From a virus: a stretch of 45,659 nucleotides of DNA. The DNA is taken from positions 1 through 45,659 of the IMG/VR virus record IMGVR_UViG_3300009285_000019; one strand, given 5' to 3'. Shown here one piece after another: positions 9,228 to 18,861 of this stretch (position 1 is the first letter of the stretch; every line of letters begins with the position of its first letter). A program made the translations under genes and the position numbers. The notes under the pieces are model-generated. The model searched no databases. It was not told the DNA's origin and worked only from the letters and a program-made list of their open reading frames with translations.

Positions 9228-9584
9228 ATGGCAGCACGGGTAATTAACGAGGGGTTAGCGAGAGCCGCCCAGGTTGTTTTAGACGATATTACTCATGCGG
9301 CGGTAGGCACCGTTTCCACTACCCCGACACAAGCTGATGTACAACTCGGTACAGAGACTAACCGTGCATCTGTTACTAAGGTGCTGCGTAGTGGCAGCAT
9401 TATACAAATCCGCACAATGTTCACAAACGCCAACCTACCTGCGACACTTGAGGAGGCTGGTTGGTTCATGAACGCCACAGGCGCAGCGAACTCAGGGGAT
9501 ATGTTGGTAAGGTCTACTCAGCAATTTGTGAAAGGCACCGCCGATCTGTTGCTCATCCTTGAGGTCCGGGTATTGGAGGGCTAA
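9228..9584 (+). CDS. Hypothetical tail-associated protein (118 aa).
   Basis: ORF track, GGGAG RBS, position in the tail module. Confidence 0.55.
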   Translation: MAARVINEGLARAAQVVLDDITHAAVGTVSTTPTQADVQLGTETNRASVTKVLRSGSIIQIRTMFTNANLPATLEEAGWFMNATGAANSGDMLVRSTQQFVKGTADLLLILEVRVLEG

Positions 9585-10484: not shown

Positions 10485-10760
10485 ATGCCTAACCAAGGCC
10501 CATGGGCTGCTGCTACTCTTGGTAGCGCCGACTTGCTCAACGCCAGCTTGCTACAGTCAGGTACAACCGCTGCTCGCCCCGACGCAAGCGCATCTAATGT
10601 GGGCATGAAGTACTGGGATACCACTGTTGCGGAGCTACAGCGTAGTAATGGAGCAGCATGGGATACAGTAGTGGATTCTAACGGAGGCGCTGCTGTGCCA
10701 TCCCTGAGGACCCTTGGTATCGGAGCATCACAAGCAGCTGTGGGCAACCACACACATTAA
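10485..10760 (+). CDS. Fibre N-terminal-module paralogue, truncated (91 aa, ends ...AAVGNHTH).
   Basis: It shares the motif order of 9748..10455 (RP..A...G..WDT...L.R.NGA.WD...LRT.G...QAA.GNH.H) and stops exactly where the longer paralogue continues. Confidence 0.5.
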   Translation: MPNQGPWAAATLGSADLLNASLLQSGTTAARPDASASNVGMKYWDTTVAELQRSNGAAWDTVVDSNGGAAVPSLRTLGIGASQAAVGNHTH

Positions 10761-10778
10761 AACATAATAGTTAAATAA

Positions 10779-10843
10779 GTGGCGCTGGAAGCTAAGGATG
10801 AGGTTCCCCTCCTAGCCGAGTCCTTAAGCGACCCCAGCGCCAC
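10779..10843 (+). terminator. Long imperfect stem-loop at the end of the + strand late operon (outer stem GTGGCGCTGG / CCAGCGCCAC).
   Basis: The 10-bp outer arms at 10779..10788 and 10834..10843 were read directly, with further inner pairing. There is no clear U-tract. Confidence 0.35.
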
Positions 10844-10851
10844 CTTAATAT

Positions 10852-11031
10852 TCGTCATCTCCATCATCTCCATCATCTCCATCATCCCCATCATCCCCAT
10901 CATCCCCATCATCCCCATCATCTCCATCATCTCCATCATCCCCATCATCCCCATCATCCCCGTCATCTCCGTCATCTCCATCATCCCCATCATCCCCATC
11001 ATCTCCATCATCTCCATCATCTCCATCATCC
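10852..11031. repeat. Tandem repeat, 9-mer ccatcatcy, 20 copies with T/C and A/G variant positions.
   Basis: Read directly. It fills the convergent gap between the + strand late operon and the - strand gene ending at 11036. Confidence 0.95.
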
Positions 11032-11035
11032 CCGT

Positions 11036-11938
11036 CTACCTGCCGGTACTGCCGAATCCCCCAGCGCCTCTAGCGGTCTCATCTAGTTTATCCACTATCA
11101 CTACTTGTGGGGTTGATATTGGGATGATTAGTAATTGGGCAAGCCTATCGCCTTTGTCCACCCGATGCTCCACTGGTAGCAGATTTTTGGCCCCAATAAA
11201 TAATTCTCCTCTGTACTCGGCGTCTATCGTACCCTCAAATATCAGTAGTCTCCTATTAAACCACGCAGATGATCTCCCCCTAAGTATGCCCACATACCCA
11301 ACAGGGATAGCCACTGATACCCCAGTAGGAACTAAGGTGAAATCATCAGGCCCGATGATGATAGTTTTAGAGACAACCAGATCCAGGCCAGCGCTAGTTG
11401 GATAGGCCCTTTGTGGTGGGGTGGCCTCCGAAGTCAAGGAGATTAATAGCGGTGGCACACTTAGAGCCGGTCTTGGCAACGTCGTCGTGGAGTTGTCCAG
11501 ATTCGCTGGATTTTTATTAGGTGCCTTAAGCAGTTTTTTCACCACTGCTATTGCTTCGTCCACGGTTTCCACCCACTCAATGCGGGTATCCCTTGTGTAT
11601 GGGCTATTAGTAGGCCCACCAGGACGCCTCGCCACTACAGGAACGCCAAGGGATACCGCCAGCTGGACCTCCCGCACCGTGCCAACAGACCTAAAATCCA
11701 GGTCTGCTATCACTACATCGGATATGGCTAGAATCTGCTCATTAGCCACAATAATGCGCTGTCCAACATCGCCCGGATCTAAGGCCGGGCGACACATGAA
11801 TCCAAGGTCTGGGCGGTAGCAAGTGACGCCAAGCGCTTGGATATCAATAGACACCAAGTGCCGCCAGTTAGACATTGCAACGCCTTCGGCATTTATTGGA
11901 CCTGCCACATATGCTAGCACTTGCGACCTCCTAGGCAT
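11036..11938 (-). CDS. dut: Fusion protein: an N-terminal nucleoside 2-deoxyribosyltransferase / Rcl (DNPH1)-like domain and a C-terminal trimeric dUTPase.
   Basis: All five dUTPase motifs are present in the C-terminal half (SAGLDL; GRSS; GTIDAEYRGEL; GDRLAQLLI; RGAGGFGSTGR). The N-terminal half reads YVAGPI...DVVIADLDFRSVGTVREVQLAVSLGVPVV, which matches the NDT/Rcl Rossmann pattern. Confidence 0.85.
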   Translation of the reverse strand: MPRRSQVLAYVAGPINAEGVAMSNWRHLVSIDIQALGVTCYRPDLGFMCRPALDPGDVGQRIIVANEQILAISDVVIADLDFRSVGTVREVQLAVSLGVPVVARRPGGPTNSPYTRDTRIEWVETVDEAIAVVKKLLKAPNKNPANLDNSTTTLPRPALSVPPLLISLTSEATPPQRAYPTSAGLDLVVSKTIIIGPDDFTLVPTGVSVAIPVGYVGILRGRSSAWFNRRLLIFEGTIDAEYRGELFIGAKNLLPVEHRVDKGDRLAQLLIIPISTPQVVIVDKLDETARGAGGFGSTGR

Positions 11939-11962
11939 TAATTAGTAGGTGTTGATTAGCGC

Positions 11963-13093
11963 TTAGTGAAGCTCGTCAAGCAATAACTCAGCAACAGGCA
12001 CGATCACTCCAGGGCCAACACCCACCCACCTCACAGGCGCTCCCACATCTTGCTCCACTTTATCCAGCAACGTGGCAATCTTGCGGCGCATATTTGGAGT
12101 GAACATTTCTGGAGCAACGCCAGCCAATTCTGGAACCTTGTAGTCTACCATAGTGAGACATATTGCATCCGGCTTGCATACATCTCTGAACTTGCGGGCC
12201 AGGACTGGATCCCACTCACCTACCCTGCGTATCCGGTTGGTGACGGTGGTGCGTTCTGGCTGAACCAACCCATTGGTGCGGGCCGCTAACTCTGCCCACG
12301 TTATTTCTTTATACATCCCACCAGAATTGCCCGCTACCCTGATGGGGTATGTCCTCATTACCCCAATGACATGATAGTTCCTTTGCCCACCCAACCCAGC
12401 GTCGTTTAGGGCTTGGGCGGGAGTGATGTCGGCTGATGTGACCTGTGGGTAGTTATTGGAGTAGGTGAGGGATAACCCAAATCCTTGGGTTGACTCCACC
12501 ACGATTGATTGCATACCCACCAGGCGATCCGACACAATGACTCCGTCGGTGTGTAGTGAGTATTGTGTGCGATTCCCCCACAGTGTCGCTGACCTCATAA
12601 TCCTTGCGGCTCTAGCCGCACCCACACCTTCTAGGGTGCTGCCGATCTTGGTCCACATGTCGGCGGACGCCTCAACCATGGCGTGCTCTTCTGTGATTAT
12701 CACAGCCGAGAGATCAATGTGCAGGATTGGTCCGTTATTGGCCGGTACGATCTTGCGATGACCGCTGCGGATGATATTACCCATCTCACTATTAAGAACA
12801 CTAATATTCACCAATGCCCCAGGCCCAAGGAATAACTCAGCGGGGGTGTGCCAAGCGCAAGGGATATGGCGCATCTTAAACGCCGTGCGCTCCGCCATAC
12901 CATTATTGATGGTCATGGTATGGCCGGCGTTTGGCCCCCCAACTCTTACCACAGCTGATGGGTTATAAGCCGATGCGTACCAAGCGGTGAGTTCACCTTT
13001 CCCCTCCGACCCGAACTGTCCTCCCATAATAATGGTGACATCGGGACCAGTTTCTGGCTGGGAAAGTTGTCTTATTGGCATTATTGGCATCAT
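11963..13093 (-). CDS. purZ: Adenylosuccinate synthetase (PurA) family homologue, short and phage-type, PurZ-like.
   Basis: It aligns by eye to E. coli PurA: GGQFGSEGKG vs GTQWGDEGKG, VVRVGGPNAGHT vs VVRYQGGHNAGHT, IGSTLEGVG vs IGTTGRGIG, STQGFGLSL...YPQVTS vs GAQGTLLDID..YPYVTS, and TTVTNRIRRVGEW vs ATTGRRRRTGWL. It is 376 aa versus about 430 aa for bacterial PurA. The start overlaps the upstream gene as ATGA. Confidence 0.8.
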   Translation of the reverse strand: MMPIMPIRQLSQPETGPDVTIIMGGQFGSEGKGELTAWYASAYNPSAVVRVGGPNAGHTMTINNGMAERTAFKMRHIPCAWHTPAELFLGPGALVNISVLNSEMGNIIRSGHRKIVPANNGPILHIDLSAVIITEEHAMVEASADMWTKIGSTLEGVGAARAARIMRSATLWGNRTQYSLHTDGVIVSDRLVGMQSIVVESTQGFGLSLTYSNNYPQVTSADITPAQALNDAGLGGQRNYHVIGVMRTYPIRVAGNSGGMYKEITWAELAARTNGLVQPERTTVTNRIRRVGEWDPVLARKFRDVCKPDAICLTMVDYKVPELAGVAPEMFTPNMRRKIATLLDKVEQDVGAPVRWVGVGPGVIVPVAELLLDELH

Positions 13094-13416
13094 CTTATGC
13101 TCCTTGCTACTAGTAATTCGTGGTATACCGCACCCCGTTCACGCCACGCTTGGAAGCAGTAAAATAGGGCGTCTATAAGCTCCTCTGCCAAGTTGCTTAA
13201 CGGGTCACCCTGAAACGTATCGCCGTAGGTTTTCCGCCCCGCAGTCTGACGGGACACCATAAGGTCACCAACCCATCTTAGGTATTCCATCCTGTCGTCT
13301 GAACTGAGGATACGCCAATCAGACGACAGGACCACACCAACAACGGCGGCATCACGATCACGATATGGAATACCACGATATGGAATACCGCTACTGGTAT
13401 CGCTGTTGCTATGCAT
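13090..13416 (-). CDS. Possible MazG-like / all-alpha NTP pyrophosphohydrolase, a MazZ candidate.
   Basis: The segment RKTYGDTFQG.DPLSNLAEELIDALFYCF resembles the K..YG....E..D...Y helix pair of MazG-like phage proteins, judged by eye only. It overlaps purZ-like by 4 nt. ATG at 13416 is preferred over the track GTG at 13431. Confidence 0.4.
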   Translation of the reverse strand: MHSNSDTSSGIPYRGIPYRDRDAAVVGVVLSSDWRILSSDDRMEYLRWVGDLMVSRQTAGRKTYGDTFQGDPLSNLAEELIDALFYCFQAWRERGAVYHELLVARSIR

Positions 13417-13552
13417 GGTATAGCGCCTCACTTTCCGTTTGTGTCTTTGCCTTCGCCGCTACCCACGTCTCCCGTGCCGCCCCCGCCTCCTTAGCCACCC
13501 ACGCTTCCCACGCCTCCTTCGCCATCGCTCTCAGCCGGTCGTTCATTGTCAT
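13409..13552 (-). CDS. Small ORF not in the track (47 aa, MTMNDRLRAMAKEAWEAWVAKEAGAARETWVAAKAKTQTESEALYHA).
   Basis: Translated by hand. TAGGAGAACCAGCC precedes the ATG at 13552, and the stop overlaps the ATG at 13416 of the next gene. Confidence 0.4.
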   Translation of the reverse strand: MTMNDRLRAMAKEAWEAWVAKEAGAARETWVAAKAKTQTESEALYHA

Positions 13553-13581
13553 GGCTGGTTCTCCTAGCCTGCATTGGCTTG

Positions 13582-14046
13582 TCAGTTATTCGCCCGCAAT
13601 GCTTTGTCAGCTATGACCCAACTATCATAGCTGCTCTTGCAAGCTGCGTGCTTGCACGTTTCAAACTCCGGACAGACCCTACCCTGCTCCGACTTGATTT
13701 TAGCGAGGGCTTCTCTGAGCACCTTTATCATCGGGGGAGGACTCACTTGTTCTTTGGGGGGCTGCCGCACACTGTCTACTGCCTGGGTCGTAGACACGGC
13801 CTCGTAAGTCAAATCAAATACATCCGGTTTGCACAGATAAAGCTCCCCCCTCACGCCCCGTATAATCCAATCGCCTATCTGTGCCTTCATGTTACCTTCT
13901 AATGTTTGTATATAGAGGCCGTCAAGCACCCCCGTCCTATCACGACTCAAAGCAAACACAACCCTCGCCCATACGCATATCGCACCAACATTCCATCCCT
14001 GGAAACGCATGGCCTCCACGACTACTGGCCTTTTGCGGTACTTCAT
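13582..14046 (-). CDS. Hypothetical protein (154 aa).
   Basis: ORF track, AGGGAAGG RBS, within the - strand early block. Confidence 0.65.
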   Translation of the reverse strand: MKYRKRPVVVEAMRFQGWNVGAICVWARVVFALSRDRTGVLDGLYIQTLEGNMKAQIGDWIIRGVRGELYLCKPDVFDLTYEAVSTTQAVDSVRQPPKEQVSPPPMIKVLREALAKIKSEQGRVCPEFETCKHAACKSSYDSWVIADKALRANN

Positions 14047-14064
14047 CTACGGTACCTTCCCTTA

Positions 14065-14460
14065 CTAGTCTCTCAGTAACTCTGAAAGTTGTCGCCCAAT
14101 TTCGGTCAACAGCGGCTCATCATCTGCAAAAGGTCCCCTTTCACGCTTCAGGAGAGCTTTCTTCTGCTCAGGCGTCATATCTAATACGGTGTAAGCAGGG
14201 TTGGGTTCGCTCATGAGACCCCCTTGGGCCATCACATGGAGGAAATGCTCCACTTGCGGACTGTAGGGTGGTTGTCCCTCCCGTGTATCAAAGGAGATTC
14301 GCCGAAAGGCTAGAGGCAAATCCGCCAAGTACTGTTTCCTGAGTTGGTAAATGGCCTCGTGCCATTTTGCAGGATCGGCGGTGAAGGTGTTATGCTTGTC
14401 TGGCTCCTGGAGAGCCAGCGCAAGACCGAGGGCATCCACGTAGCTCCAATACTTACTCAT
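14065..14460 (-). CDS. Hypothetical protein (131 aa).
   Basis: ORF track, GGGAGGAG RBS. Confidence 0.65.
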   Translation of the reverse strand: MSKYWSYVDALGLALALQEPDKHNTFTADPAKWHEAIYQLRKQYLADLPLAFRRISFDTREGQPPYSPQVEHFLHVMAQGGLMSEPNPAYTVLDMTPEQKKALLKRERGPFADDEPLLTEIGRQLSELLRD

Positions 14461-14668
14461 AGACTCCTCCCTTACTTGACGATAAGGTCAACTTACGCCT
14501 ACCATGATGTTTACTATAGAAATGATTGCCTAACTTACGTTCCCACAGCTGCATCGCCAACCTAGGAGCATACGGCTCCGGGAGGGGCTGTATGCCAAAA
14601 ACTTCTCCACACCAACCGCACCCAACAGGCACCGATAATCTAGCTATAACATCCTGCTCTGGAGTCAT
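14453..14668 (-). CDS. Hypothetical protein (71 aa).
   Basis: ORF track, AGAGGA RBS, 8-nt overlap with the downstream gene. Confidence 0.5.
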   Translation of the reverse strand: MTPEQDVIARLSVPVGCGWCGEVFGIQPLPEPYAPRLAMQLWERKLGNHFYSKHHGRRKLTLSSSKGGVYE

Positions 14669-14708
14669 ATTATTATCCTCTGTCTAGTTTATCTGGTTTG
14701 TCTGGTTC

Positions 14709-15065
14709 TTAACCCCCACAAACACAGTCGCAGCCCTGCGTGGCGCAATTTGGGTTGCTCTCAAGGCTTATGTTGTGGCTACCTACCAGACACCAAGCGC
14801 AGACCAACTGACACTCTGGGCTGCAATTTGATGGTGCTGCTACGAGCCGGTTTGGGTTTGTATTGACGCTCCCGTGGCGACTGCACTGGGCATCAACGCA
14901 TCTTCCGTTAGCGTCTGCCACTATCATTCCACAACCTTCACAGAGGCAGTACTGTAGTGCAAGGTTTGAGAATCGGAGTGCCGCACTAGACTGCGGAAGT
15001 GATAAATCAGTCCAGTGCAAAGGCGCATCAAGCTCCACCGAGCATTGCATGCAGAAATCAGCCAT
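14709..15065 (-). CDS. Cysteine-rich (zinc-finger-like) hypothetical protein (118 aa).
   Basis: ORF track, GGAGG RBS, and several CxxC pairs (CMQC, CEGC, CAWC). Confidence 0.55.
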   Translation of the reverse strand: MADFCMQCSVELDAPLHWTDLSLPQSSAALRFSNLALQYCLCEGCGMIVADANGRCVDAQCSRHGSVNTNPNRLVAAPSNCSPECQLVCAWCLVGSHNISLESNPNCATQGCDCVCGG

Positions 15066-15198
15066 GCGATACCTCCTTCCTTAAAAGAGCCGATACAACA
15101 CTCATATCAATTTCACAGCCCAATATTTGAAGTAACTCTGCTTGCACACCTATTAGTGCCTTAGCCCTATAGATAGCCAATTGACCTTGAATATCCAT
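15058..15198 (-). CDS. Small ORF not in the track (46 aa, MDIQGQLAIYRAKALIGVQAELLQILGCEIDMSVVSALLRKEVSHG).
   Basis: Translated by hand. AAGGAGGAAGGAG lies upstream of the ATG at 15198, and the stop overlaps the start of 14709..15065. Confidence 0.4.
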   Translation of the reverse strand: MDIQGQLAIYRAKALIGVQAELLQILGCEIDMSVVSALLRKEVSHG

Positions 15199-15230
15199 GT
15201 TACACTCCTTCCTCCTTGCGCCAATTCCGG

Positions 15231-15602
15231 CTACAATTTAGACCGCACCACTGTTACTGTCTCACCAACGGCGGTTCTTTCCGTGGCGGCGCTGATGGTG
15301 TCGGGTGATACTCCTAACTCTAGTAATTTGGTCTTAGATATACGCTCTTGCCCACCAGTGCGCTGGATGGTGAGCCGGTACTGCACCAGCCCATCACTAC
15401 TCACCACATTCACAGACTTGGCGTCGGGCGGCAAGTACTCCCTCAACGCCGGTATATATCTAATAAGAACATCACGCCAGCCCGACACCTCACCATCTGC
15501 AGCGTCCCTTAGATCCCTATATCTGGCCATCTCAGACGCTGCAACAAGTAAATCCTTGCCCATCTCGTCGTCTTGTTTTATGGTGATCATGGTTGTTGTC
15601 AT
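15231..15602 (-). CDS. Hypothetical early protein (123 aa from the internal ATG).
   Basis: The track ORF starts at 15632, only about 9 nt from the predicted transcription start. ATG at 15602 is preceded by CAGGAGCAACAGGAGCAACAAC. Confidence 0.6.
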   Translation of the reverse strand: MTTTMITIKQDDEMGKDLLVAASEMARYRDLRDAADGEVSGWRDVLIRYIPALREYLPPDAKSVNVVSSDGLVQYRLTIQRTGGQERISKTKLLELGVSPDTISAATERTAVGETVTVVRSKL

Positions 15603-15647
15603 GTTGTTGCTCCTGTTGCTCCTGTGCGGCATCTATCCAATACCACC

Positions 15648-15676
15648 ATTATATCACACCTTTAACGGGCTGTCAA
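15648..15676 (-). promoter_or_regulatory. Early promoter copy a: TTGACA-N17-TGaTATAAT.
   Basis: The reverse complement of 15648..15676 reads ttgacagcccgttaaaggtgtgatataat. Confidence 0.7.
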
Positions 15677-18401
15677 TTGGTGGTACTTTATATTGCTTCA
15701 TCTCGCCCCACTTTCTGCCAATCCTCACTTCCACAATAATAGGCACGGGGAATAGCGAACCATTCGGTGTGGCCGCTTCCAACATGGGTGCGAATGTGGC
15801 CGCCACTATACCCGCTATATCTTCATTTACCTCATGTATTACTTCATCGTGAACTTGTAAGATAGGGTTGATGGGGCCGTTTAACTGCGGCGGTGGCAGC
15901 GCCCCCTCCACAGCAGCCATACCAGCTTTCACGATCCCCATGGACGCCGATTGTATTCCACTATTAACAGCCTCCCGTTCACCTTCGGATCTGATCCTTG
16001 GGTTGGTACTACGAATTTGTGGTAGTAGCCTGATACGGCCCCACATATCTCTTATATATCCATACCTGCGGGCTTCGGCCTGCCGTTCCATCCCATACCC
16101 CTTAATCATTGGGTATAATTTGAAATAGTCATCCAGAAATTGCTGGCAACGCTTCTCATCCCAATCAGCAAACGCCCCAGCGCCGAGGGATGATGCCTCT
16201 TCCTCCAGGTAACCCTTAAACCCACGGGCTGATATCCAATATACAGTGCCGAACCCACCACGCTTAGCTATATATCTGCGCCCGTATGGGTTAATGCGAT
16301 GCTCATCTTGTATCACATGTAATGGTACACCCCATATTGCGGCTGCGGTCTCGGCGTGAATGTCACGCCCCTCTGCGAATAGTCGCATCATGCCGCTATC
16401 CTTGCTATCTACGGCAAGCACTCGCATCTCTATTTGTGAATAATCAAACGATACTAATGTCATATTAGGTGAGGCTTCTATACAAGACCTCACCATCCTA
16501 CCTTCCTCATACCTTACTGGAGTGGCAGCGGTATTAGGATCACTATGTTTGTACCGGCCAGTCTCTGTCCCTGCAGGATTAATCCTACCGTGGATGCGCC
16601 ATGTCTCACCACCACCACCACCGCCCCCCATCTTCATTTTATCAAGCATCGGGCCGATGAACGACGCTTGCATGGTATCATAACGCTTATACCGCAATAT
16701 TGTCGGGATGATGGGGTGGTGGGCTTTTATAGGCTCTAGAGCCTCCACGTTTACCTTAGGCCGGCGTTTCACTGGGGTAAGGTATAACGCCTGTATCTGG
16801 TTGCCTGTTATTACTGATCTTACCCCGTCGCTTCCAAATATGACGCTGGCTACTTGGTCGTCCGATCCAACACTGAACATCTTACCAGCTAGTTCGTGGC
16901 ATCTTTTAGCTATATCTTGCATCCTAGCGGCGAACACCGCCTGTAACCCCAATACGGCATATCTATTGACCGGCATGCCGTAGTGCGTCATACGGGCGAC
17001 AAGTGGTAAGGCTTGGATATCGGTCTTATAAATCTCTTCCATACCCCTTTCTATTATGCGTGGCCACAACTCGTTATACACTCTCAACGTAGCGTCTGGG
17101 TCACGAGCCGAGTAATTAATGCTATCACTGCGGTTAATAGATGGGTGAGAAAGGTCAACTGACGGCGCTGGGCCTAACAACCCGCCCATATCATTGTTTA
17201 TTATATTCCACCTAGCTACCCCATCGGCTCCGATGTTGACATCAGCGATGAGCCGCCCAAGCCGCCTACTAAGTTTTGACGAAGCATCCAATCCTTGTTG
17301 CTTAGCCACAGCAGCTGATACCGTGGCGTCACGCACGGCTGGCGTTATCATCTCCGAATAATCCTTCATCTCCATGCCGCACAACTGCCTGGCCAGCAGT
17401 TTGAGTCCAAGGGGCAAATCCTGCAACATCCAAGCCATTATCATGGTGTCGTCAAAATTGCGTTGGTGCGGCGTCACCCCCAACTTCCATAACATAGGCA
17501 GGTCGTACGCTGCGTTATGCATAACGATATGAGATGATGATAACAATTTAGCCAGTGGGTGGCCAATAACGTTGTTGGCTAATACCACTAGGCCCTCACC
17601 CCGACGACAGGACATCTGCACGTATAGCGGTTTATCGCCTGACGCCTGCGCCTCGGTGTCTACAGCTACCACGCAAAATGGGTCATCTTGTTGGAGCATG
17701 TACTCCATAGCGTCGCCAGCACCCACCATCTCATAGTGTTCTTTACCGGCGTGCTCATCTACCACCTCAGTATACGTGCCATCTAGCGCTTTCCTTATTT
17801 GGCCAAAATCCCTATCAACCACCTTCATAAGTAGTTTTCCCCTATCTCTGAACACTGAGGCGGGGTGATAAATGGGTAACACAATGACGTCGCCCAAGTC
17901 ATTATACTTATGGGTGCGTTGTATTCTGCCATGGATCTCCTCCATGGTGATGCGATGGCTATGATCACCAATTATATACTTAGCTGCTGGCACCCCCATC
18001 GCTACAATAATTTTGGGATGCAACATCCGGATCTCACTATCCAGCCACCTATCGGCGCAGAACACACCCTGTTGTGGAGAAGGAGCGAAATCACGCACTT
18101 GCCCACTACCCGCTGGGCGGCACTTACACAGGTTTGTTACCCACACATCATCACGGGATAGCCCGATCCTGCTAAGTTGCCTATCAAACTCTCTGCCTGC
18201 AGGACCTTGGAAAGGCATCCCTGTTTCATCTTCTCGCTGGCCCGGCCCCTCACCCACGAACATTATATTAGCGCTAATTGGCCCAATGCCAGGTACTGGT
18301 CCAGCACACTTGGTCCTAAGGTCACATGCCACACATGCTCTGTTAGGTACCCATAAGGGTAGCTGTTGGATATCTATCGTCATGCCATCACCCGCCACCA
18401 T
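15654..18401 (-). CDS. DNA polymerase, family A (PolA-like) with a 3'-5' exonuclease domain and an N-terminal family-4 uracil-DNA glycosylase-like domain.
   Basis: UDG4 motifs are present (FVGEGPGQREDETGMPFQGPAG; IYHPASV; cysteines CVAC...C..C). Exo motifs are VAVDTE, HNAAYDL and YSARDPDAT. Pol motif A is LVSFDYSQIEMRVLA, motif B is RRYIAKRGGFGTVYW, and motif C is QVHDEV. Confidence 0.93.
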   Translation of the reverse strand: MVAGDGMTIDIQQLPLWVPNRACVACDLRTKCAGPVPGIGPISANIMFVGEGPGQREDETGMPFQGPAGREFDRQLSRIGLSRDDVWVTNLCKCRPAGSGQVRDFAPSPQQGVFCADRWLDSEIRMLHPKIIVAMGVPAAKYIIGDHSHRITMEEIHGRIQRTHKYNDLGDVIVLPIYHPASVFRDRGKLLMKVVDRDFGQIRKALDGTYTEVVDEHAGKEHYEMVGAGDAMEYMLQQDDPFCVVAVDTEAQASGDKPLYVQMSCRRGEGLVVLANNVIGHPLAKLLSSSHIVMHNAAYDLPMLWKLGVTPHQRNFDDTMIMAWMLQDLPLGLKLLARQLCGMEMKDYSEMITPAVRDATVSAAVAKQQGLDASSKLSRRLGRLIADVNIGADGVARWNIINNDMGGLLGPAPSVDLSHPSINRSDSINYSARDPDATLRVYNELWPRIIERGMEEIYKTDIQALPLVARMTHYGMPVNRYAVLGLQAVFAARMQDIAKRCHELAGKMFSVGSDDQVASVIFGSDGVRSVITGNQIQALYLTPVKRRPKVNVEALEPIKAHHPIIPTILRYKRYDTMQASFIGPMLDKMKMGGGGGGGETWRIHGRINPAGTETGRYKHSDPNTAATPVRYEEGRMVRSCIEASPNMTLVSFDYSQIEMRVLAVDSKDSGMMRLFAEGRDIHAETAAAIWGVPLHVIQDEHRINPYGRRYIAKRGGFGTVYWISARGFKGYLEEEASSLGAGAFADWDEKRCQQFLDDYFKLYPMIKGYGMERQAEARRYGYIRDMWGRIRLLPQIRSTNPRIRSEGEREAVNSGIQSASMGIVKAGMAAVEGALPPPQLNGPINPILQVHDEVIHEVNEDIAGIVAATFAPMLEAATPNGSLFPVPIIVEVRIGRKWGEMKQYKVPPIDSPLKV

Positions 18402-18861
18402 ATACAGTAATATCGTGTAATATCACTCTTCCCACAGCATCGGCCACGGATTTTATTGTGGTGCCACCCAACATCTTGCCCGCCGCTGGGATGTATGGAT
18501 GCCCACAGTCTACCCCAACTAGCAGCGCTACCAGTTCTATAGCTGGCACCCCAGCGCTCAGGGCGGCGGATGCCAGCTTACCGACAACCTCAGCCTCTGC
18601 CCTATTACATGCGGTGGTGATGATAATGGCGTGTAGCTTTTCCTCATCGCCCCCATTGGCAACGCTTGATGGTATGGAAGATGATACTTTCACAAGCACC
18701 ATACAGATCTTGCAGATCTTGCCATTTTTGTCCGGTTCACGGCATACAGTAACGTACATTTTGCCGTGGCCAGAATCTACCCTGTAGGTGGTAGATGGCA
18801 GCGTTTCAGGAAGTAGGTCCTCTGATATATGTGGCATAGGTGAGGGTGATCTTTCAACCAT
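18388..18861 (-). CDS. TSCPD-domain-like protein (related to the C-terminal domain of class II ribonucleotide reductases).
   Basis: The segments GHGKMYVTVCREPD..GKICKI...GKLASAALSAGVPAIELVALLVGVDCG...IKSVADAVGRVI follow the TSCPD pattern by eye. It overlaps the polymerase start by 14 nt. Confidence 0.5.
   Translation of the reverse strand: MVERSPSPMPHISEDLLPETLPSTTYRVDSGHGKMYVTVCREPDKNGKICKICMVLVKVSSSIPSSVANGGDEEKLHAIIITTACNRAEAEVVGKLASAALSAGVPAIELVALLVGVDCGHPYIPAAGKMLGGTTIKSVADAVGRVILHDITVYGGG

Follow-up and report, generated by a model that had tools for sequence, protein, structure and literature searches.

How could a phage keep deoxyadenosine triphosphate (dATP) out of a DNA in which 2-aminoadenine (Z) may stand in place of adenine, when no gene for DatZ is found near its PurZ-like synthetase? 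This question is raised by IMGVR_UViG_3300009285_000019, an uncultured phage from a groundwater metagenome (ENA ERZ909573, run SRR2177362, PRJNA292723). The window analyzed here is the whole 45,659-nucleotide (nt) stretch of this record and covers nearly all of a 45.8-kb contig of that metagenome. On its minus strand, a tight array of genes runs from a DNA polymerase through five small open reading frames (ORFs) and a further ORF of 108 or 113 amino acids (aa) to a synthetase of the PurA family, and then to a fusion protein that carries a dUTPase domain. A sequence-only reading of this array had proposed a candidate 2-aminoadenine module with a MazG-like small ORF and without DatZ, and had reasoned that dATP would then have to be excluded by other means.

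We consider it likely that this region encodes the nucleotide-pool functions of a PurZ0-type Z-DNA system. That the genes of the window are homologues of the PurZ0/DmtZ-DutZ system we hold with high confidence on sequence grounds, and full substitution of the virion DNA by Z with lower confidence than this homology. The other way of excluding dATP does exist, but it is not new, since it has already been published: PurZ0 phages possess neither DatZ nor MazZ and have DutZ and DmtZ in their place (Poubanne 2026, PMC12884076). Thus the contig offers a divergent new example of a published system and no new mechanism. With it, the PurZ0/DutZ/DmtZ route to Z-DNA reaches from soil actinophages into a groundwater lineage that is uncultured and has hardly any annotated genes.

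The synthetase and the fusion protein

The synthetase was aligned with five PurZ0, three PurZ and two PurA sequences. Its P-loop (residues 24-33) reads GGQFGSEGKG, compared with GGQFGSEAKG in PurZ0, GGQWGDEGKG in PurA and D-x-Q-[FY]-GSTGKG in ATP-type PurZ. That is, Ser29 stands at the position of the catalytic Asp13 of PurA. The loop past the RV motif is IRVAGNSG, the same as in PurZ0 (TRVGAGPF in PurA), and the motif of the inosine monophosphate (IMP)/deoxyguanosine monophosphate (dGMP) site is TTVTNRIRRVG (TTVTNKIRRVG in PurZ0 and GTVTGRRRRVG in PurA). The pocket for the base of the nucleoside triphosphate (NTP) reads LTMVD, where PurZ0 has LSMAD or LTMLD, PurA has TKLD or TMLD, and ATP-type PurZ has LNF[CA]N-Y. 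The protein therefore differs from ATP-type PurZ, with LTMVDY and GSEGKG in place of the F295/Y298-type LNFxN-Y and GSTGKG, and from canonical PurA, with Ser29 for Asp13 and TNRIRR for GRRRR. It keeps the guanine-type Asp of the NTP pocket (T[KM]xD motif; LTMVD). It also keeps the positions that are equivalent in the alignment to F12, S14 and T262 of PhiVC8 PurZ, residues with roles in dGMP contact (10.1101/2025.10.22.683976).

Among solved structures, the best match of the synthetase was 7VF6, the PurZ0 of Gordonia phage Archimedes (E 1.8e-41), followed by Pyrococcus horikoshii PurA (E 5.5e-37), PhiVC8 PurZ (6FKO, E 1.9e-27) and S-2L PurZ (7ODX, E 1.2e-22). The PHROGs family that it matches, phrog_1211, is annotated as '2-aminooxy adenylosuccinate synthetase'. 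Its top phage matches in GenBank, at 33-37% identity, all came from PurZ0 actinophages (Microbacterium, Arthrobacter, Gordonia and Curtobacterium phages), and the ATP-type PurZ phages of Vibrio and Acinetobacter lay below them in score. The protein is 56 aa shorter than the E. coli PurA of locus L021 (432 aa, 1299 bp), in agreement with the difference of about 55 aa noticed earlier.

Trees were built by neighbour joining (NJ) on Kimura distances, the first with 66 sequences and 100 replicates and the second, to which cellular sequences were added, with 59 sequences and 200 replicates. The sequences with Ser in the P-loop were split from P. horikoshii and E. coli PurA at 99-99.5% bootstrap, and the window synthetase fell in a clade of 45 sequences composed of metagenomic proteins only (83%, first tree). 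Because of this separation, the synthetase does not group with cellular PurA, and both the motifs and the trees support its description as PurZ-like. Judged by its motif features, it appears to be a PurZ0-type enzyme, and the NTP-pocket motif suggests that it uses GTP. By analogy, the predicted reaction is the condensation of dGMP with aspartate to N6-succino-2-amino-dAMP, with GTP as the phosphate donor. PurZ0 itself is said to use GTP (reportedly in the abstract of Tong 2023). The wording of the ATP/GTP preference in PMC12884076 is the other way round.

The fusion gene starts 24 nt downstream of the synthetase gene and so directly follows it, as the sequence-only reading had noted. The C-terminal half of its product (residues 172-299) carries all five dUTPase motifs (AGLDL, GRSS, GTIDAEYRGEL, DRLAQL and RGAGGFGSTG), and the best phage matches of this Dut domain are the Duts of PurZ0 phages (42-49% identity). 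When compared with gp53 of Arthrobacter phage Wayne, a DmtZ-DutZ protein, the fusion was aligned over 273 residues with 33% identity (E 7e-30). The domain order, DmtZ and then DutZ, is the same, and the lengths are 300 aa in the window and 306-307 aa in the known proteins.

The N-terminal half gave only a weak match to PF05014 (E 0.026). A tblastn search of its first 150 aa against phages and a word-indexed search for homologues of the domain gave no match, and its homology was therefore established through family hidden Markov models (HMMs) and profiles. For this purpose, the DmtZ of phage Ghobes was pinned as gp53 of KX557278 by its published residues Y6, D12, P57, N77, E103 and W124. An HMM of four actinophage DmtZ domains matched a single ORF of the window, namely the fusion, at residues 9-103 (E 4e-4). 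A profile of 52 DmtZ-like domains gathered from PurZ loci matched, in the PDB, nucleoside 2-deoxyribosyltransferases (NDTs; 8PQP, 2e-7, and 7M5H, 2.5e-7) and DNPH1/Rcl (4FYH, 4.4e-7, and 2KHZ, 4.9e-6). Residues Y10, P43, N66 and E90 of the window protein align with Y6, P57, N77 and E103 of Ghobes DmtZ. In the alignment of the 52 domains, Y10, P43, G86 and E90 (window numbering) are invariant and N66 is present in 49. The alignment with Wayne, the DmtZ HMM, the Tyr/Asn/Glu triad and the profile matches to NDTs and DNPH1 together indicate that the N-terminal domain is a DmtZ homologue of predicted NDT fold with its triad intact. The "dUTPase fusion" of the earlier reading is thus best described as a DmtZ-DutZ-type protein, and a fusion of this kind beside a Ser-type PurA should be annotated as such.

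In PurZ0 phages, the dUTPase-like enzyme DutZ breaks dATP and dGTP down to the monophosphates and also hydrolyzes dUTP, and DmtZ is an NDT-fold dAMP N-hydrolase; these activities were measured for the Wayne and Ghobes proteins (PMC12884076). Among 98 PurZ0 genomes, dutZ is present in all 98 and dmtZ in 85, and the two are fused in 77 of these 85, as in the 307-aa protein of Wayne (PMC12884076). By analogy, the C-terminal domain of the window fusion may act as a dATP/dGTP/dUTP diphosphatase, and the N-terminal domain as a dAMP N-glycosidase or deoxyribose-5-phosphate transferase.

DatZ was searched for in three ways. No HD-domain protein was found by Pfam among 38 ORFs of the window, phmmer searches with the DatZ of S-2L, VP2 and SH-Ab 15497 gave no match among all window ORFs of at least 30 aa, and a DatZ HMM gave no match in the window. 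The absence of DatZ noticed at first is thus borne out, as are all the other observations that had been made at the sequence level.

We then considered the 80 closest PurZ-like loci of IMG/VR, scanned over +/-6 kb with home-made HMMs. Neither DatZ nor MazZ/DUF550 was found in any of the 80, whereas a Dut was present in 63 and a DmtZ-like domain in 57. Both occurred together in 50 loci, in 32 of them within one ORF, and DUF5664 occurred in 4. The order of PurZ followed by the fusion is repeated in the closest relatives, L012 (57% identity), L022/L103 and L104 (58%) and L008 (45%). Since no locus of the 80 holds DatZ, its absence is the rule for this branch of the family and not an anomaly of this contig, and DmtZ-DutZ, not DatZ/MazZ, predominates here.

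On the basis of this homology and of the activities of the characterized Wayne, Ghobes and Archimedes enzymes, the pathway can be considered as follows. The DutZ-like domain would convert dATP and dGTP, as well as dUTP, to monophosphates, which would remove the competitor dATP and produce dGMP. The DmtZ-like domain would split dAMP into adenine and deoxyribose 5-phosphate and so make the removal of dATP irreversible; it may also pass the sugar phosphate to the free Z base. The synthetase would then form N6-succino-2-amino-dAMP from dGMP, aspartate and GTP, the PurB and kinases of the host would complete dZTP, and the polymerase encoded upstream would build dZTP into the genome. The absence of DatZ and MazZ would be explained by DutZ and DmtZ, which would take over their tasks. 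The motifs of PurZ0, the DmtZ-DutZ fusion and the context of the locus make the proposed 2-aminoadenine module plausible.

A different arrangement was observed in locus L010 (9317..10480), where a Dut domain is N-terminal and is followed by a long linker and a different C-terminal domain (...PPIICLCGSTRFW...GESTTAEIVYA...). This looks like another NDT-like domain, in an order reversed relative to DmtZ-DutZ. Also encoded there are DUF5664 (PF18909; 15245..15763) and an Acb1-like protein.

The polymerase and the composition of the genome

The polymerase gene lies on the same strand as the synthetase gene and ends 2.56 kb upstream of its start, as had been noticed. Its product combines a UDG-like domain (PF03167, E 6.5e-28), a 3'-5' exonuclease domain (PF01612, E 2e-12) and a PolA domain (PF00476, E 1.8e-75). 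The UDG-like domain is of the family-4 type, with GEGPG and HPAS motifs and several Cys residues. UDG-PolA genes of this kind also stand beside PurZ-like genes in L104 (1527..4190, 58% identity), L010 (3904..6561, 34%) and L008 (682..3411, 32%). The best relative in GenBank (26%) comes from an uncultured phage that encodes thymidylate synthase and a 'pyrimidine hmase'; the 15.3 kb of it that were examined hold no PurZ. UDG-PolA points to a further polymerase lineage that travels with PurZ, and we regard it as a candidate replicative polymerase of a Z genome.

A sigma-70 consensus promoter (TTGACA, 17 nt, TG-TATAAT) overlaps the stop codon of the polymerase gene (15654) and stands at the head of the array 15632..11036, whose last two genes are those for the synthetase and the fusion. 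Its match to the consensus suggests that it may function as a promoter. Promoter-like sites in the region as a whole are at chance level (6 found and 5.8 expected).

A stand-alone TSCPD-domain protein (PF12637, E 4.7e-11) is encoded at 18388..18861 on the minus strand and overlaps the start of the polymerase gene; it is kept in L104 (46% identity). The TSCPD domain is otherwise known from ribonucleotide reductases, and in L011 a full ribonucleotide reductase with TSCPD adjoins the PurZ and Dut genes.

Several findings speak against a PurZ0-type Z system in this phage, or at least against a standard one. The presence of Z in the DNA of this uncultured phage is something that we can only infer. 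The polymerase aligned with DpoZ-1 (Wayne, Ghobes, Typher) and DpoZ-2 (VP2, SH-Ab 15497) at only 22-24% identity over partial lengths (35-76 bits), which places it, as judged from sequence, outside both DpoZ clades in a separate UDG-fused lineage. The clade of the window synthetase is distinct from the actinophage PurZ0 and the PurZ clades, the first tree does not settle the order of the three, and the second tree joined the window clade with actinophage PurZ0 at only 62%. In the fusion, the equivalent of Asp12 of Ghobes DmtZ is Asn16; Asp is found in 50 of the 52 homologues, and Asn only in the window and its closest relative, L012. This Asp has been proposed to read the 6-amino group of adenine, and both D12A and D12R are inactive (PMC12884076). 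We speculate that Asn16 could still take a hydrogen bond from this group. The Trp124 lid is not kept either (S112-P113-Y114 in the window), although with Trp in 19 of the 52 homologues this position is weakly defining. The Dut domain is about equally near a canonical Staphylococcus phage Dut (42%) and the Arthrobacter DutZ (42%), so that a purine dNTPase activity cannot be read from its sequence. Finally, the Asp-to-Ser change in the P-loop, which the sequence-only reading had given as a trait of PurZ, is indeed present but is not exclusive to phage PurZ. It is too weak an argument when taken alone, because the kinase-fused cellular clade described below also has Ser.

What is new in this contig lies largely in such divergences, that is, in the metagenome-only clade of the synthetase, the Asn variant of DmtZ and the UDG-PolA lineage, and also in the small protein considered in the next section. 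It is conceivable, though we doubt it, that this contig and L008, L010, L022/L103, L104 and L028-L030 represent a third, independently assembled system for the replication of Z genomes. Such a system would have a deep-branching GTP-type PurZ clade, a UDG-PolA Z-replicase, an Asn-type DmtZ of altered specificity and possibly the small protein as an accessory factor.

The strongest competitor of a Z genome is that the module reshapes the nucleotide pools without full substitution, by depleting dATP, by guarding against dUTP, or by allowing a partial or conditional incorporation of Z. A polymerase unrelated to both known Z-selective DpoZ clades would fit this idea, the Asn in DmtZ could change its specificity, and the Wayne fusion still kinetically favours dUTP (PMC12884076). 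However, Z-DNA is found in every characterized phage that combines a Ser-type PurZ or PurZ0 with dATP-clearing enzymes (PMC12884076, PMC8342488). Moreover, S-2L reaches full Z substitution with a non-selective PrimPol after the removal of dATP (PMC8065100), and because this PrimPol is non-selective, a selective polymerase of the DpoZ type would not strictly be needed. We therefore think a pool-reshaping role improbable, and a Z genome made by the PurZ0 route remains our preferred reading.

The small ORF and the occurrence of the Ser-type P-loop

The ORF upstream of the synthetase starts either at a GTG (13090..13431, 113 aa) or at an ATG (13090..13416, 108 aa), and the public gene calls and P0121 have 108 aa. 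As had been pointed out, its TGA stop overlaps the ATG of the synthetase in an ATGA (...ATAAGATGATGCC...). It was said to be MazG-like on account of a motif that is real, namely K67-x-Y69-G70, E83-E84-x-x-D87 and Y91 on a helix-loop-helix. If so, it might, as a MazZ-like (d)GTP pyrophosphatase, provide PurZ with dGMP, while the fusion would be incidental and dATP would be excluded by some new mechanism. The coupling to the synthetase and the conserved acidic EExxD helix beside the KxYG loop would agree with this possibility.

The tests of family, profile, fold and hhalign did not support it. An exhaustive profile search found 179 relatives (E<=1e-3) that share a domain of about 65 aa with the consensus WRxL..R..RQ..G..YGDxFQGDPLxHLxEELxDxLFY. 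Neither the ORF nor a profile of 74 sequences had a sequence match in Pfam, NCBIfam or the PDB, and the ORF itself had no PHROGs match. Of the 74 members, 8 weakly matched an unannotated PHROGs family and one matched phrog_37613, 'MazG-like pyrophosphatase' (E 1.7e-4). An AlphaFold model from three sequences was too poor (pLDDT 51), and the modelling was repeated with 74. The pLDDT then exceeded 90 at residues 40-113, with helices at 44-69 and 77-112 joined by a seven-residue loop with YGDTFQGDP, and with 35 disordered residues at the N-terminus. For this hairpin, Foldseek gave no PDB match and no significant one in BFVD. With one ExxD motif and two helices it corresponds to half of a MazG-HisE protomer, which has four helices, whereas in MazZ two helices bear four conserved acidic positions (PMC8342488).

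As candidate relatives, MazZ/DUF550, DUF5664 and the PRA-PH/MazG ORF were rejected by hhalign (probability 0.2%), and so was the idea of a minimal DUF5664/DUF550 relative with a KYG-like loop. The family of Ghobes gp51, Archimedes gp51 and Typher gp54 gave no match, hhalign included. The members of that family (L015 16771..17334, L018 6065..6451 and L001 7215..7751, respectively) are conserved, lie directly downstream of PurZ0 and share the C-terminal motif KAxEYG...YQYVxGKxGRWTAAxxRG..SDDTLxDxGxY...GEWP. This family goes unmentioned among characterized enzymes and has no homologue in the window.

The distribution of the hairpin family was also informative. A locus search with a trimmed alignment found few loci. 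The family lies directly upstream of PurZ in L008, L013, L022/L103, L104, L105 and L028-L030, which speaks for a MazZ-like role, but in L102/L107 and L106 the gene is the last of the replication operon and no PurZ follows. The family was not found in the Wayne, Ghobes, Archimedes and Typher loci examined. Since, in addition, DutZ already supplies dGMP in PurZ0 phages (PMC12884076), we consider a MazZ-like function very unlikely. In the simplest reading, the conserved hairpin protein belongs to the backbone of this phage group, with the PurZ and DmtZ-DutZ cassette placed after its gene.

In the relative L102 (= L107; 2547..5213), the hairpin ORF is present, as is a structural gene 46% identical to window 9228..9584. 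The equivalent position is occupied by genes for a PRA-PH/MazG-like protein, a UDG-free PolA and a dCMP deaminase, and no PurZ or fusion was found within the 6.4 kb covered, which points to a modular Z cassette in these phages. Within the window ORF, an exact 15-bp direct repeat (2.1 copies, 13359..13389) encodes GIPYR-GIPYR in the disordered N-terminus, and this segment is missing from the more distant homologue P0122.

With regard to the synthetase, we also considered whether it could be an ordinary auxiliary PurA that raises AMP from IMP, beside a housekeeping dUTPase and with no Z base. Its match to P. horikoshii PurA is nearly as close as that to PurZ0, and the GTP-type Asp of PurA is kept. 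The replacement of Asp13 by Ser and of TGRRRR and GAGPF by the PurZ0 versions, the bootstrap separation from PurA, and an operon shared with a protein of the DmtZ-DutZ kind, which is known only from PurZ0 phages, make this explanation scarcely credible.

Ser in the P-loop also occurs outside phages. A scan of species-representative genomes, with a pattern biased towards GSEGKG, led to a cellular clade of PurA-like proteins with the P-loop GGQ[YF]GSEGKG, a TSTT motif of its own and an insertion. The members are encoded on Mb-scale chromosomes or scaffolds of Sorangium, Sphingomonas, Acidobacteria, Dehalococcoidia, Nitrosopumilus and others, and the clade was monophyletic in 200 of 200 NJ replicates, with the window protein outside. 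Two of the loci were examined, L139 4251..6724 (Sorangium cellulosum, NZ_CP012673.1) and L167 4440..6700 (a Nitrosopumilus metagenome-assembled genome, OZ244650.1); further ones are L118-L125, L146, L164, L165, L173 and others. In both, a kinase-like domain (AAA_33/AAA_18) precedes the PurA-like domain within one protein, and an overlapping DUF7002 gene comes next. Neighbouring genes encode a trypsin-EAD1 protein, DUF6119 and a Peptidase_M78 protein, which suggests a defence island. No PADLOC 2023 system corresponds to this pair, and no mention of DUF7002 was found in the papers searched. The pair may belong to a cellular system, akin to PurZ, that has yet to be described.

That the window synthetase might likewise act on another substrate, such as another modified purine or a signalling or toxic nucleotide, is suggested by these kinase-fused domains and their defence-like surroundings, but it is hardly to be expected of a protein that lies outside the cellular clade, has neither its insertion, its TSTT motif nor its kinase domain, and shares the dGMP-contact positions of PhiVC8 PurZ.

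The locus and its comparison with known systems

The features of the array are listed in Table 1. The synthetase sequence is identical on eight contigs from several assemblies. A megablast search with 11036..18401 gave no DNA-level match among GenBank phages, and most ORFs of the window have no match to a Pfam or PHROGs family.

Table 1. Genes, domains and promoter of the array, with the main evidence for each
Feature	Position in window	Strand	Evidence
PurZ0-like synthetase, 376 aa	11963..13093	-	PF00709, E 2.9e-35; phrog_1211, E 4.9e-64
DmtZ-DutZ-like fusion, 300 aa	11036..11938	-	PF00692 on residues 172-299, E 1.1e-25
Putative DmtZ-like NDT-fold domain, fusion residues ~1-135	11534..11938	-	four-sequence DmtZ HMM, E 4e-4
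Putative DutZ-like dUTPase domain, fusion residues ~166-300	11036..11443 (end coordinate includes stop codon)	-	PF00692, E 1.1e-25; phrog_135, E 2.3e-44
Hairpin ORF, 108 aa from ATG	13090..13416	-	ATGA overlap with synthetase; family of 179 relatives
UDG + 3'-5' exonuclease + DNA_pol_A polymerase, 915 aa	15654..18401	-	PF03167, PF01612, PF00476
Sigma-70 consensus promoter	15648..15676	-	12/12 hexamer matches, extended -10 TG

A 9-bp tandem repeat (TCATCTCCA / TCATCCCCA; 10855..11033, 19.6 copies, 95% matches) starts 3 nt past the stop codon of the fusion gene, at the junction between the minus-strand replication array and the plus-strand structural genes. The number of units is 17 by count in the window and 7 in L004, and near-identical contigs of other assemblies have fewer, so that the copy number varies between populations or between assemblies. 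A minus-strand ORF over the repeat (10757..11029, MEMMGMM...) is probably not a gene.

Among known systems, DNPH1/Rcl and the NDTs (4FYH, 2KHZ, 8PQP, 7M5H) share the fold family of the fusion N-terminus, with the catalytic Glu and Tyr kept. They differ from it in that the triad of the window domain, like that of DmtZ, has Asn for the usual Asp, and in the fusion to a dUTPase and the context of a phage Z module. PurA (E. coli 1ADE; P. horikoshii 2D7U/5K7X) resembles the synthetase in fold, in the NAGH motif of the catalytic His and in the GTP-binding Asp, and the archaeal enzyme has the same compact length. In contrast, Asp13, TGRRRR and GAGPF of PurA correspond to Ser, TNRIRR and GNSG in the window.

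The Z-cluster of S-2L, PhiVC8/VP2 and SH-Ab 15497 follows the same plan, in which dGMP is made and turned into a dZ precursor and dATP is eliminated, and it shares the Ser P-loop and the TTVT motif. The window differs from it in having neither an HD-domain DatZ nor a MazG-fold MazZ/DUF550, and in showing LTMVD and GSEGKG where these PurZ enzymes have the ATP-type LNF[CA]N-Y and GSTGKG.

The closest counterpart is the PurZ0 system of Wayne, Ghobes and Archimedes (Poubanne 2026, PMC12884076; PDB 7VF6; Tong 2023, its ref. 12). The differences are considerable. The window synthetase, at 33-37% identity, belongs to a separate, metagenome-only clade; DmtZ has Asn for Asp12 and does not keep the Trp lid; the polymerase, fused to a UDG domain, is not related to DpoZ-1; a DUF5664 gene is lacking, and the synthetase is coupled to an additional hairpin ORF. 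The known hosts are actinobacterial, whereas the window comes from groundwater, and the phage PurB of Ghobes and Keanu has no counterpart in it. Nevertheless, both systems lack DatZ and MazZ, encode a PolA upstream in the same orientation, and place a Ser-type PurA homologue with a GTP motif beside a dUTPase-like domain and an NDT-fold domain. In the window, the Tyr/Asn/Glu triad and the Pro of DmtZ are kept and all Dut motifs are intact.

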